DNA of 64,000 bases from NCBI GenBank assembly GCA_045125595.1, contig JBGVNN010000024.1, positions 12,608 to 76,607 of the forward strand. The letters run 5' to 3'. The translations under genes and the position numbers were made by a program. Under the pieces are notes generated by a model. It saw only the letters and a list, made by a program, of their open reading frames with translations. It did not search any database and had not been told where the DNA came from. Origin of the DNA: Candidatus Egerieisoma sp. Its GTDB lineage: Bacteria > Bacillota > Clostridia > UBA1212 > UBA1255. This document shows, one piece after another, positions 11,293 to 30,990 of the stretch (positions are counted from its first letter, which is position 1; each line of letters begins with the position of its first letter).

Positions 11293-11322
11293 TTGATACA
11301 AAGAGTCGGCATGTGGTACAAT
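11293..11322 (+). promoter_or_regulatory. Sigma-A-type promoter for the lipoprotein/kinase/PqqD/NTase cassette.
   Basis: TTGATA, an 18-nt spacer, then TACAAT. Confidence 0.4.
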
Positions 11323-11370: not shown

Positions 11371-11877
11371 ATGAAAAAGGCTTATTTATCTGTAATTTTA
11401 ATTTTTACTTTAATACTTATGTGTTTATGTCTGGCTTCTTGCGGAGAGGTTGAGGGAATAGAAATAACACGTGATGTTACACCTACAGCAAGAACACAAC
11501 CTGTATCTACGCCAACACCAACAACTGTTATTACTCCTACTGAGTATTTAGGTGATGAAAATGAAGTAGCTACATTTGATATTCAAGAAGACCCGACTAC
11601 AGCTCCTGCTACGGGAGGAAGCACAAATCAAACCAGTCAAACTACAGCAGGAACTACAATAAATCCCACAAATGGACAACAAACATCAAATCCTACTTCC
11701 GTACCGACAACGACTCCGACTCAGACTAACGGAGCCACATCATCGGCTACAGCGAATGTTACGAACACTCCTACAGCACCGACAACAGAGAATCCAACAA
11801 CAAGTCCTACAAGCACTCCTGCACAAACACCTTCAAAGAAGACTCCGATTCGTCTTCCTATTATTTGGTTTGACTGA
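11371..11877 (+). CDS. Lipoprotein with a long Thr/Pro/Ser/Asn-rich low-complexity region and a hydrophobic C-terminal tail (PIRLPIIWFD).
   Basis: RBS AAAGGAATGA. The N-terminus MKKAYLSVILIFTLILMCLCLASCGE carries a lipobox (LASC). The stop overlaps the next start (ATGA). Confidence 0.7.
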   Translation: MKKAYLSVILIFTLILMCLCLASCGEVEGIEITRDVTPTARTQPVSTPTPTTVITPTEYLGDENEVATFDIQEDPTTAPATGGSTNQTSQTTAGTTINPTNGQQTSNPTSVPTTTPTQTNGATSSATANVTNTPTAPTTENPTTSPTSTPAQTPSKKTPIRLPIIWFD

Positions 11878-12608: not shown

Positions 12609-12859
12609 AACTTAAAGATGTAATTATCAGTGAAGCTAATGGAGAATATGTAGCAGTAAATATGGGTGGCTCGTTTAACGGCATGATAAAACTTAATGAA
12701 ACTGCTGCTTTTATTGCTGAAGCAATGCAAGAAGATACAACTGTTGAAGAAATTGCAAAAAAGCTTTGTGCTGAGTACGAAATCGATGAGGCTACTGCTG
12801 TGCAAAGTATTGAGGCGGTAGTAGAAAAACTTCGCGAAATAGGATTTATTGAGGAATGA
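12605..12859 (+). CDS. PqqD-family protein (RiPP precursor recognition element-like), 84 aa.
   Basis: Sequence VAVNMGGSF..IKLNETAAFIAEAMQEDTTVEEIAKKLCAEYEIDEATAVQSIEAVVEKLREIGFIEE resembles the PqqD/RRE family. RBS AAGGAGGAG precedes the TTG start. Confidence 0.65.
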   Translation: MKLKDVIISEANGEYVAVNMGGSFNGMIKLNETAAFIAEAMQEDTTVEEIAKKLCAEYEIDEATAVQSIEAVVEKLREIGFIEE

Positions 12860-14406
12860 GAGAAGCTGTATCAATAAAACAAGCACTTGAAAAAAACGGT
12901 TTTGTAATTCATAAAATTAAGGGTGGCAGTATGCTTCCTTTGCTTGATGAAGAAACTGATTTGGTCAGGCTTGAGGCTGTTGCTTGTAAAGACAAATTGA
13001 AAAAATATGATGTGCCGCTTTTTGTGAATGAAAGTAATGGCATGTTGATTCTCCATAGAATTATTGATGTTAAAAAGAATCATTACATCACATATGGGGA
13101 TAATTGCAAGCATTATGAAATTGTGCCTTTTGATACAGTTTTAGCTGTTGCTACAGGTTTTTATATAAAAGGAAAGTTTGTTTCCTGTAACGATCCGGAG
13201 TATTTGAAATATGTAGAAGAAAGATGTTCTTCTATAAAAAAACGCAAACTTTACCCGTTAAAAAGAAAACTTGCACCGGAGACAAAGGTGTTAGTTAAAT
13301 TATTCGTTGAAGCAGTCAAAAATGACGGCGTATCAATGAATGTTGAAAATGAGATTTCCGCACAATTCAATTGGCAAAAATTATTTGCGGAGGCAAAACG
13401 CCACAATATTGGGGCGATGCTGTATCCTTATGCCAAAAAAGCCGGCTGTCCGGAGCCTTTAATATCTGCGTGGAGTCAAATCGCTGATAAAGCATTGAGA
13501 AAAGAGCTTTTGTTTAATGCAGAAAGAAGCGCAATTATAAGTGAATTTGAAAAAGCCGGCATAAAATACATACCGCTTAAAGGAATAATAATTAAAGATT
13601 ATTATCCGAGAAAAGGTATGAGAGAATTTACGGATAACGATATGCTGTTAGAGGAAAAGTCGATCCCTGCAGCTACTCAAATAATGGAAAAAAGAGGATA
13701 CAGAAGTAATATAAATGAAGATTACACTGATTGTCCTTTTTATAAAGAGCCTATATTTAATTTCGAGTTGCACAGAGCGCTTTTTGCAAAAAATGTGCCG
13801 ATTGCCAAGTATTTCAAAGACCCGTGGAAAAAGGCTGTAAAAGATAACGATAGTAATTTTGGTTATCATATGACAAATGAGGATTTTTATATCCACGTTA
13901 TTACACACTTTTATAAACATTATGCAATCAGCAGAGGTGCGGGACTGAAATTTTTTGCTGATTTCCATTATTTACAAATAGGTTTGATTGACAGCCAAAA
14001 AGTTGATATAAATTATATAAAAAGAGAGTTTTCGAAATTAGGCATATTAGAATTTTATGAAAAAACTGTTGAAATGACAGAACGTCTGTTTAAAGGAGAC
14101 GAGACACTATTTACAAACGAAATGCTTCACTATGTTCTCTCGAGCGGAGCTTACGGCAATAAATCACAGGCAATTGCCAATAATATTAAAAACAATGGTA
14201 AATTTAAGTTTTGGTTTTCAAGACTTTTCCCAACGAAGGGATATATGGTAAAGGTTTTTCCTGTAATAAGAAAAGCCCCCGTGCTGTTGCCCTTTTTATG
14301 GATTGTGCGCCTCGTAAGAGCGCCGTTTACTAAATCGGGACGTGAAACATTTACACGGGAGCATAATATCTCAAAACATATTGATATATCTTCTGATAAA
14401 GATTAA
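12856..14406 (+). CDS. Fusion protein: N-terminal S24/S26-type (SipW/Sec11-like) peptidase domain plus a C-terminal uncharacterised polymerase-beta-superfamily nucleotidyltransferase (NTP_transf_5-like).
   Basis: KGGSMLPLL and LILHRII form the peptidase signature, with His in place of the SPase-I Lys. IPLKGIIIKDYYPRKGMREFTDNDMLL fits the hG..x(n)..DxD NTase motif. The start is coupled to the PqqD stop (ATGA). Confidence 0.6.
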   Translation: MREAVSIKQALEKNGFVIHKIKGGSMLPLLDEETDLVRLEAVACKDKLKKYDVPLFVNESNGMLILHRIIDVKKNHYITYGDNCKHYEIVPFDTVLAVATGFYIKGKFVSCNDPEYLKYVEERCSSIKKRKLYPLKRKLAPETKVLVKLFVEAVKNDGVSMNVENEISAQFNWQKLFAEAKRHNIGAMLYPYAKKAGCPEPLISAWSQIADKALRKELLFNAERSAIISEFEKAGIKYIPLKGIIIKDYYPRKGMREFTDNDMLLEEKSIPAATQIMEKRGYRSNINEDYTDCPFYKEPIFNFELHRALFAKNVPIAKYFKDPWKKAVKDNDSNFGYHMTNEDFYIHVITHFYKHYAISRGAGLKFFADFHYLQIGLIDSQKVDINYIKREFSKLGILEFYEKTVEMTERLFKGDETLFTNEMLHYVLSSGAYGNKSQAIANNIKNNGKFKFWFSRLFPTKGYMVKVFPVIRKAPVLLPFLWIVRLVRAPFTKSGRETFTREHNISKHIDISSDKD

Positions 14407-30804: not shown

Positions 30805-30829
30805 TTAGATTCGGTTTAAAACAATAAAA

Positions 30830-30990
30830 ACAGAATAATTTCGCCGAAGACAGCAGGCATCGTTAGTACGTATAAGTCCGGCCGAGGTTAACTGATTTTA
30901 TAATCACAACCCTTTTGTGTCTTTGGCATGAAAGGGTTTTCTGATTTTTATACAATGATGGGACAATTTTACAAGGAGGTGTTTGTAAGG
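30830..30990 (+). promoter_or_regulatory. rplJ (L10) leader, the probable L10(L12)4 autoregulatory region.
   Basis: A ~185-nt structured intergenic region upstream of rplJ holds a hairpin (cacaaccctttt..aaagggttttctg). Confidence 0.4.

Follow-up and report, generated by a model that had tools for sequence, protein, structure and literature searches.

What does a protein do that joins a signal-peptidase-like domain to a nucleotidyltransferase in a single chain, and on which substrate does it act? The question is raised by a 516-aa protein encoded in a stretch of 64,000 nucleotides (hereafter the window) of contig JBGVNN010000024.1 from Candidatus Egerieisoma sp., a member of the Clostridia. 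An earlier note, made from the sequence alone, had described a fusion of a Ser/His signal-peptidase-like domain with a nucleotidyltransferase and had supposed that the two couple cleavage and modification of a precursor. We conclude that the protein is probably a naturally occurring fusion of the last two enzymes to act in a maturation cassette that resembles those of peptides made on ribosomes and modified after translation (RiPPs) and is of the type described for linear polyphosphorylated peptides (LPP). The analysis itself shows the identities of the two domains, the conservation of their catalytic residues, the coupling of the operon and the evolutionary linkage of the two modules.

Two enzyme domains in one polypeptide

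The open reading frame (ORF) is real, and family matches, conservation and predicted fold agree on the fusion that had been proposed. The motifs K22-G-G-S25-M-L-P28, L64-I-L-H67-R-I-I70 and I238-P-L-K-G243...F-T-D260-N-D262-M-L all occur where the earlier note had located them and have invariant cores in the homologues; they had been read correctly, since Pfam and NCBIfam matches back both domains. Residues 170-412 match Pfam NTP_transf_5 (PF14907; E=3.4e-41, 141.9 bits for a cut-off of 31.2 bits). For residues 5-100, the best NCBIfam match was the archaeal-type signal peptidase I (TIGR02228, E=4.7e-8), followed by SipW (NF046067, E=1.7e-5). The protein is a fusion of an S26B-type peptidase domain with an NTP_transf_5 domain. 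It begins with MREAVSIKQALEKNGFVIHKIKGGSMLP, the putative catalytic Ser is preceded by 24 residues, and no hydrophobic anchor or signal sequence was found N-terminal to Ser25. Nothing in the PDB matched the whole protein by sequence.

In a search of 5.8 billion proteins, full-length homologues with the fusion (487-550 aa, 31-95% identity) formed about 30 clusters, and there were many unfused transferases, about 375 aa long; the exact protein of the window is also carried by public contigs of up to 189 kb. The peptidase, and the kinase described below, were represented by about 2,500 protein clusters each. The residues that did not vary among 26 full-length fused homologues (31-73% identity) included G23, S25, M26, P28, L66, H67, R68, G81, D82 and N83 in the N-domain, which coincide with boxes B, D and E of the enzymes of the endoplasmic reticulum (ER), archaeal and SipW types, and K242, R256, D260, D262, E304, H306, H351 and H355 in the C-domain. 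Widening the comparison to 45 peptidase modules, fused or stand-alone (21-79% identity), retained G23, S25, M26, P28, D35, L55, L66, H67, R68, G81 and D82, and 76 transferase-domain sequences shared K242, R256, D260, D262, H306, H351, H355, G361, G363 and D369, with Glu304 invariant or nearly so across the alignments. A profile of the 45 peptidase modules was colinear with human SEC11A (E=7e-4) and SEC11C (E=4e-4) over SM.P, HR[VI] and GDN and also aligned with SpsB (E=3e-4). Judged from these sequence comparisons, the peptidase module is a distant but true member of the S26 kin, with His for its base.

The assignment to the SipW/Sec11 type with His in place of Lys was thus sound, as TIGR02228 and SipW were the best matches, H67 was invariant in all 45 modules and the SEC11 proteins aligned. 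Two details of the earlier description need correction. The Ser and the His of the active site are both invariant, but they do not form a bare dyad because Asp82 of box E (GDN) is conserved as a third catalytic residue, and the site would be better described as a Ser/His/Asp set. Similarly, the DxD motif and the PF14907 fold hold, but not the signature G-x(9-13)-DxD, since G243 and D260 are separated by 16 residues, which exceeds the canonical 9-13. Database annotation reflects half of this architecture: the fused homologues are named only “nucleotidyltransferase family protein” by NCBI, with the peptidase domain unannotated, and the stand-alone homologues of the peptidase domain carry the name “S24/S26 family peptidase” without any assignment in Pfam. 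P0031, a partial sequence of 670 aa from a Clostridia metagenome-assembled genome (MAG), is listed by NCBI as “nucleotidyltransferase family protein, partial.”

The AlphaFold2 model, built on the 76-sequence alignment, consisted of two domains (pLDDT 91.5, pTM 0.82), a beta-rich domain with strands in 16-110 followed by a helix (114-125), a short linker and an alpha/beta plus helical domain. The linker residues 131-140 had a block mean pLDDT of 80, with no regular secondary structure between helices 114-125 and 141-155; in the alignment, stand-alone peptidases carry a C-terminal amphipathic basic helix at this position. The C-domain ends in a helical region closed by a conserved hydrophobic helix, PVLLPFLWIVRLV, in which L477 and P479 are invariant. 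Foldseek searches of the PDB matched the modelled N-domain to SpsB, LexA (3k2z) and UmuD' (1umu), which agrees with the S24/S26 fold that the earlier note had predicted, and the C-domain to LnuA (4fo1) and ANT(2'')-Ia (5kqj, 4xje and 5cfs), with target-normalised TM-scores of at most 0.66; FKRP was also among the fold matches. The E-values were modest (2e-3 to 1e-1), as expected because the query has two domains. Two of these structures, 5cfs and 4xje, had been reported as the modelling templates of PsmN from the pseudomycoidin cluster (PMC6993621).

A four-gene operon of the LPP type and its relatives

The fusion gene is the last of four genes, encoding a predicted lipoprotein, a kinase, a PqqD-family RiPP recognition element (RRE) and the fusion, whose reading frames overlap by 1, 4 and 4 nt (Table 1). 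The stop codon of the lipoprotein gene overlaps the ATG of the kinase gene (TGATG), and the RRE gene shares 4 nt with each of its neighbours; the operon is translationally coupled.

The kinase carries a Walker A motif, APSGTGKTTH (residues 105-114), followed by N130-G-D132-K-P. All of its approximately 2,500 homologues were assigned to ScmC (PF27840), its NCBIfam matches to ScmC (18 vs 125 bits), HprK_rel_A and HprK_rel_B were weak, and its profile found only generic P-loop similarity in the PDB by sequence. The fold was more informative: for the AlphaFold2 model (pLDDT 94.3), 50 of 50 among the Foldseek matches listed were ATP-dependent PEPCK or HprK/P (E=2e-6 to 3e-4). Invariant residues were H90, A105, S107, G110, K111, T113, H114, N130, D132, K133 and P134. 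The best NCBIfam matches of the RRE were lasso PqqD chaperones, below their cut-offs, and its closest solved relatives were the lasso B1 proteins TfuB1 (E=1.2e-5), PbaB1 (9x90, E=2e-3) and TbiB1.

The earlier note knew of no characterised relative of this architecture. Such relatives exist: a four-component LPP system, the lppA-K-B-S-D-N cluster of Paenibacillus alginolyticus DSM5050, was reported in May 2026 (Popov et al., Nat Commun; PMC13381572), and fusions of a transferase to the B2 protein were mentioned in 2016 (PMC8498205). In the LPP system, the SipW-like LppS (WP_029196374.1) removes the leader of LppA only when the RRE LppB is present, its S29A, H68A and D93A mutants have no activity, a substrate that has not first been phosphorylated is cut inefficiently, and LppK polyphosphorylates Ser3 of the core (PMC13381572). 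That study did not identify the final product or the biological role of the clusters; the published clusters are embedded in capsular polysaccharide loci, the supplementary tables name NTP_transf_5, PqqD, TIGR02228 and TIGR02203, and the main text makes no mention of a peptidase-transferase fusion, of Clostridia or of lipoproteins (PMC13381572).

The window has the same four families in the same order, namely an HprK-like kinase, a discrete PqqD RRE, a SipW/archaeal-type Ser/His/Asp peptidase and NTP_transf_5. Like the LPP cluster it has no lasso cyclase, its peptidase is likewise predicted to be cytoplasmic and RRE-linked, and helix 7-14 at the N-terminus of the fusion model occupies the position of the RRE-contacting helix alpha-1 of LppS. 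Since families, order and family models match, the protein is best read as LppS fused to LppN. The two systems nonetheless differ: in the window, LppS and LppN are one polypeptide with a more divergent N-domain (33 bits to TIGR02228), a lipoprotein gene stands at the position of lppA, the operon has no MsbA-like exporter, a precursor with the LppA-type leader is missing from the 64 kb, and the host is of the gut/rumen Clostridia type rather than Bacilli, with the operon outside a capsule locus. The cassette belongs to the LPP type, with the differences of being fused, exporter-less and provided with a non-canonical or unlinked substrate. When searched with the aim of reaching the Paenibacillus LppS, the peptidase-module profile returned gut and rumen relatives as all of its best 120 matches.

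Other known systems share part of this set. The lasso clusters of paeninodin and pseudomycoidin (PadeK/PsmK, B1, B2, PsmN, D) also bring together a kinase, a PqqD RRE, a leader protease, a nucleotidyltransferase and an ABC exporter, and in Firmicutes lasso clusters the transferase gene stands beside the protease gene and is “in several cases fused to the B2 protein” (PMC8498205). PsmN is required for the addition of 162 Da (hexose) to the phospho-Ser made by the HprK-like kinase of pseudomycoidin, and its D134A/D136A mutant is inactive (PMC6993621); the C-domain has the ANT(2'')-like fold and DxD metal site in common with it. The window protease, however, is a serine enzyme of the S26B type, not the transglutaminase-like cysteine protease B2, and there is no macrolactam synthetase in the window, and the product cannot be a lasso peptide. 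Signal peptidases of the SipW/Sec11/archaeal group (MEROPS S26B) share the box B Ser (SM.P), the box D His base (HR) and the box E Asp (GDN), whereas the N-domain of the fusion is cytoplasmic, has no membrane anchor, counts only about 125 residues and scores below the family cut-offs; by homology, it would depend on the RRE and cut a RiPP-type leader rather than a Sec signal peptide. Finally, the kinase falls into the Pfam family of ScmC and is paired with a PqqD-like protein, as in the SynChlorMet (SCM) cassettes (ScmC/ScmD; TIGR04249, TIGR04248; PF27840), which some related loci also resemble in having added radical-SAM/SPASM maturases; the window has no radical-SAM gene. To our knowledge, SCM cassettes have not been described with an S26-like peptidase or NTP_transf_5.

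An 8-sequence alignment allowed us to find 79 related loci in species-representative genomes, nearly all of which are MAGs from gut or rumen that belong to Clostridia, Bacilli and Erysipelotrichaceae. Kinase, RRE and peptidase always came in this order, and the transferase followed in three arrangements: fused to the peptidase, encoded by an adjacent separate gene, or set apart from the peptidase by the gene of an ABC exporter (about 547 aa) or by those of two or three radical-SAM/SPASM maturases. Peptidase and transferase were partnered throughout, and the pairing of PqqD with the peptidase was likewise conserved. Many of these loci, unlike the window, have the ABC exporter, and a TupA-like ATP-grasp domain is found at the C-terminus of some of their transferases. 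When the transferase domains were placed in a quick neighbour-joining tree, the fused forms all grouped in one clade, which suggests essentially one fusion event, in a lineage mostly without exporter; the exporter-less fused architecture has been kept in more than 12 species-level genomes. The idea that the cassette loci are mis-recognised lasso clusters was ruled out because the cyclase and the B2 protease are absent: no cyclase-sized ORF was seen in 12 related loci, and neither a lasso cyclase nor a transglutaminase-like B2 protease is encoded in the window.

Several variants of the cassette were observed. Two fused-type loci have a different gene in place of the ScmC-type kinase just upstream of the RRE gene, encoding an APH-family phosphotransferase in L012 (4738-5616; Pfam E=4.5e-35), possibly a non-orthologous kinase replacement, and an inorganic pyrophosphatase in L015 (5139-5741; E=1.8e-60). 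Tandem pairs of NTP_transf_5 paralogues without kinase, RRE and peptidase (L026-L028, L030, L047 and L048; e.g., L026 5977-7107 and 7109-8281) lie in cell-surface polysaccharide loci near sugar-nucleotide enzymes and acyltransferase-like membrane proteins, which hints that the ancestral acceptor may be a glycan. In nine Ruminococcus loci (L031, L035, L039, L043, L057, L058, L068, L073 and L075), two conserved coding regions precede the cassette (e.g., L031 3633-4334 and 4337-4660): the first is the C-terminal domain of a larger protein (...HIFDGTINSKGKATGYHY...), the second encodes about 107 aa, and together they resemble a polymorphic toxin/immunity pair. Neither a lipoprotein nor a short precursor was seen in these loci.

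Table 1. Features of the operon, domains of the fusion protein and other annotated elements (positions in the window).
Feature	Position	Strand	Basis or remark
T-box leader	3441-3687	+	123.9 bits; ordinary Firmicutes regulatory RNA, unrelated to the cassette
Promoter-like site	11293..11322	+	TTGATA, 18-nt spacer, TACAAT, upstream TG; 10/12 matches
Predicted lipoprotein (“class A”), 168 aa	11371..11877	+	signal peptide MKKAYLSVILIFTLILMCLCLASC, lipobox LASC
Hairpin GAAGACTCCGATTCGTCTTC, then T-rich stretch	11838-11857		in the final 40 nt of the lipoprotein ORF, just ahead of the kinase start
ScmC-family P-loop protein, HprK/PEPCK kinase fold, LppK-like, 243 aa	11877..12608	+	Pfam family and fold matches
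PqqD-family RRE, LppB/lasso-B1-like, 84 aa	12605..12859	+	Pfam PqqD, E=7.5e-19
Fusion gene, 516 aa	12856..14406	+	ORF with ATG start
N-domain (residues 1-125), soluble S26B-type (SipW/Sec11/archaeal) signal-peptidase-like, LppS-like	12856..13230	+	family matches, conservation, model
Putative catalytic Ser25	12928-12930	+	N-domain
Putative catalytic His67	13054-13056	+	N-domain
Putative catalytic Asp82	13099-13101	+	N-domain
Interdomain linker (residues 126-140)	13231..13275	+	model and alignment of stand-alone and fused modules
C-domain (residues 141-516), NTP_transf_5 nucleotidyltransferase fold, LppN/PsmN-like	13276..14406	+	Pfam PF14907
Metal-binding Asp260	13633-13635	+	C-domain
Metal-binding Asp262	13639-13641	+	C-domain
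Metal-binding Glu304	13765-13767	+	C-domain
Ribosomal protein L10 leader	30826-30951	+	52.5 bits; ordinary Firmicutes regulatory RNA, unrelated to the cassette

The promoter-like site upstream of the lipoprotein gene possibly marks the operon start; it is weak evidence because such sites are not more frequent in the region than in shuffled sequence (11 found, 12.5 expected). Hairpin-type sites were also no more numerous than in shuffled sequence; the one at the end of the lipoprotein gene could attenuate read-through and so favour synthesis of the lipoprotein over that of the enzymes. The operon is flanked by housekeeping or unrelated genes, outside any polysaccharide locus; the flanking ORFs read as cysteine synthase-like and Na/Ala symporter-like proteins, TrpS, GH43, an M23 peptidase, PheS and PheT (GH43 and M23 confirmed by Pfam).

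Proposed mechanism and competing explanations

By homology with its relatives, the small PqqD RRE would bind a recognition segment of a ribosomally made substrate, and the HprK-fold kinase would phosphorylate a Ser of that substrate, by analogy with LppK, PadeK and PsmK. The RRE would present the substrate to the N-domain for a cytoplasmic cut by Ser25, His67 and Asp82, as modelled on LppS, and the tethered NTP_transf_5 domain would decorate the same substrate through the metal site formed by Asp260, Asp262 and Glu304. The most likely transferase reaction would be that of PsmN, the transfer of a sugar or another group from a nucleotide-activated donor onto the phosphate. Being fused, the two domains would then cleave and decorate one RRE-docked substrate in a fixed 1:1 coupling. 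The coupled cleavage and modification suggested in the earlier note fits the operon with its RRE and kinase, the partnership in the 79 loci and the LPP experiments (PMC13381572).

A number of observations weigh against this reading. The N-domain scored below the curated cut-off of every signal-peptidase model (33.1 vs 51.85 bits for TIGR02228 and 24.5 vs 190 bits for NF046067), and the Pfam scan, a check that the earlier note had proposed and that matched the C-domain to PF14907, gave no match for it. Its likeness to LppS comes from family models, motifs and the published description, and LppB (9x8z) was absent from the solved relatives of the RRE at E<=1. There is no MsbA-like ABC exporter between or beside the cassette genes in the window. 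The LppA leader pattern YxxPxVLxHQxIxFETxxS was found nowhere in the six frames of the 64 kb by regular-expression scan, and a hidden Markov model (HMM) of related leaders, run over 2,265 stop-to-stop segments of the window, gave a best E of only 1.5. Deletion of lppN had no visible effect in the heterologous system, and LppN activity was never seen directly (PMC13381572), so that the transferase chemistry proposed here is an extrapolation from PsmN. The NTP_transf_5 paralogues found without cassette in polysaccharide loci also make a non-peptide acceptor possible.

This last point leads to the alternative that survives best, although we consider it unlikely: the system would act mainly on a cell-surface glycan or lipid, by a LicD/FKRP-like transfer of phospho-alcohol or sugar phosphate to which peptidase, RRE and kinase are accessory. 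It would be in line with the cassette-less NTP_transf_5 genes located among sugar-nucleotide enzymes, flippases and glycosyltransferases, with FKRP among the fold matches, with the capsular surroundings of the published LPP clusters, and with the LppN deletion, which altered no peptide product (PMC13381572). However, the operon of the window is not in a polysaccharide locus, PsmN acts on peptide-bound phosphate (PMC6993621), and that the transferase is physically joined to an RRE-dependent peptidase speaks for a common peptide or protein substrate.

It is very improbable that the cassette is a decaying or orphan LPP-type remnant which has lost precursor and exporter and makes no product. Such a remnant could account for the lack of an LppA-type leader in 64 kb, for the missing ABC exporter and for the housekeeping flanks, but not for four intact frames that overlap by 1-4 nt, nor for catalytic residues that are all invariant in the 26 fused homologues, down to 31% identity. 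The exporter-less fused architecture is moreover preserved across species, as noted above, and several diverged members have kept the upstream lipoprotein gene with its conserved tail.

We give hardly any credit to the view that the N-domain is an ordinary secretory SipW-like signal peptidase for Sec signal peptides, for instance that of the neighbouring lipoprotein, with the transferase as unrelated cargo. Its best family matches are indeed signal peptidases I of the archaeal and SipW types, and the upstream gene product does have a signal peptide; but a lipobox protein is expected to be processed by signal peptidase II. The N-domain has no transmembrane anchor, and it is fused to a nucleotide-using, therefore cytoplasmic, enzyme. 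It scores far under the equivalog cut-offs and is strictly linked to a PqqD RRE, and the homologous LppS cuts its leader only with the RRE (PMC13381572). Just as implausible is a LexA/UmuD-like self-cleaving, regulatory or scaffolding module controlling the transferase: Foldseek also matched LexA and UmuD' and one stand-alone homologue has a weak Pfam Peptidase_S24 match (E=0.066), but the base is His and not the Lys of the S24 family, box E (GDN) is of the S26B type, stand-alone modules with nothing attached to regulate are abundant, and LppS acts in trans on LppA (PMC13381572).

The upstream lipoprotein and the substrate question

If the fusion is the LppS-LppN pair of an LPP-type cassette, the substrate would be either the lipoprotein encoded directly upstream or a peptide encoded beyond the 64-kb window. 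The lipoprotein gene sits where LPP clusters have lppA. Its product has a low-complexity body rich in Thr, Pro, Asn and Gln and ends in the tail ...TPIRLPIIWFD. Sixteen ORFs associated with the 79 related loci combine a signal peptide, a body rich in Ser, Thr and acidic residues and a tail of the form [IV]-x-LP-x-[ILWP] (an example of a tail-type peptide sequence is SKKTPIRLPIIWFD). None of the 16 lies outside a cassette locus, and 12 of them immediately precede the kinase gene; the tail pattern, which was chosen post hoc, is by itself present in 1.06% of all ORFs of at least 40 aa.

Two further arrangements upstream of the kinase gene were observed. L008 has two tandem signal-peptide proteins (4001-4381 and 4392-4946) with unrelated bodies, one with dockerin-like repeats (GDANSDGEINAKDVAIIRRYIVG) and the other of low complexity, which end in the same tail, ELPRLPLK; this suggests that the tail is a portable tag. 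The Bacilli-type fused loci L003 (4593-6980) and L016 (4191-4967) have a large beta-lactamase/PHP-domain protein directly upstream of the kinase, and the C-termini (…GLNPINVK and …GIRPINIKDR) loosely recall the lipoprotein tails, which may be a coincidence.

The lipoprotein may also be a companion and not the substrate, because conventional precursors neighbour such lipoproteins in other loci. These short precursors have a lasso-like leader of the form Y-x-T-P-x-[LV]-E-[IV]-[IV]-x-F...T-x, followed by the core; an HMM of this leader found them beside the lipoproteins in L083, L034, L071, L009 and L029; in L020 and L023 it placed them upstream of the lipoprotein gene. The precursor of L009 has a core starting with NIVLPPDEF, similar to the lipoprotein tail EIDLPWDEF, a resemblance that hints at a shared functional motif. 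We also considered the lipoprotein tail (L-P-I-I-W-F-D) as a C-terminal copy of the RRE-bound leader motif (L-E-I-I-E-F-E). The likeness is by eye only and received no support from the HMM built on 13 short-precursor leaders, which among about 9,600 ORFs found no lipoprotein tail but further short precursors instead.

A short precursor family of 27-38 aa with the lasso-like leader MKE.YE.P.[LMV]E[IV][IV]E[FI]....[DE][IV].{2,3}[TA][SG] was observed in L037 (1276-1362), L045 (4843-4944), L049 (2474-2560), L050 (4830-4925), L054 (1339-1425), L061 (3575-3670), L062 (4692-4796), L082 (503-586), L033 (2978-3094), L036 (2849-2950 and 2984-3097), L046 (4320-4427) and L072 (2794-2886). The cores are short and acidic (GIYE, VEWGNPSGVE, GGIPESGA) or Cys-rich, and the cassettes add two or three radical-SAM/SPASM maturases, or a fusion of the transferase to a TupA-like ATP-grasp domain plus extra ATP-grasp genes. 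They look like further RiPP classes on the same module of kinase, RRE, SipW-like peptidase and transferase.

For the fused exporter-less clade we tentatively suggest, as a possibility that is more doubtful than the fusion reading itself, that the LPP-type machinery was repurposed from a small leader peptide to a secreted lipoprotein. The Thr/Pro-rich lipoprotein would dock by the conserved [IV]-x-LP-x tail at its C-terminus, be phosphorylated and decorated in the cytoplasm by the kinase and the fusion protein (a modification of the phosphoglycosyl type), and then be exported by Sec and lipidated. A Sec-exported substrate would explain why no dedicated exporter is needed, and any modification of the lipoprotein would precede export, since the enzymes of the window have no signal peptides. 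A parallel is offered by the DAG-RiPPs, RiPP-lipoprotein hybrids described in PNAS in 2026, in which lipoprotein-type precursors with C-terminal motifs are modified by cytoplasmic enzymes (PMC13056109). The window lipoprotein likewise combines a lipobox signal peptide with a conserved motif at the extreme C-terminus; the enzymes, in contrast, are MNIO there and a kinase, a peptidase and a transferase here, and the window lipoprotein is only a candidate substrate, with a short conventional precursor beside the lipoprotein in several related loci. If true, this scenario would amount to a DAG-RiPP-like route to a modified surface lipoprotein in gut Clostridia.

The kind of cassette is not categorically new, being known since 2026, but the distribution of the module is much wider and more varied than published. 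The combination of SipW-like peptidase, RRE, kinase and transferase extends well past the Bacilli into many gut and rumen Clostridia, is joined in some loci by radical-SAM/SPASM or ATP-grasp maturases, and is accompanied by a family of tail-tagged lipoproteins that had gone unremarked. The natural fusion of peptidase and transferase is evidence of the Rosetta-stone kind that both act on the same docked substrate, which bears on LppN, whose activity the published LPP study could not find. The minimal four-gene operon of the window, located outside polysaccharide loci, offers a cleaner system in which to seek this missing chemistry.

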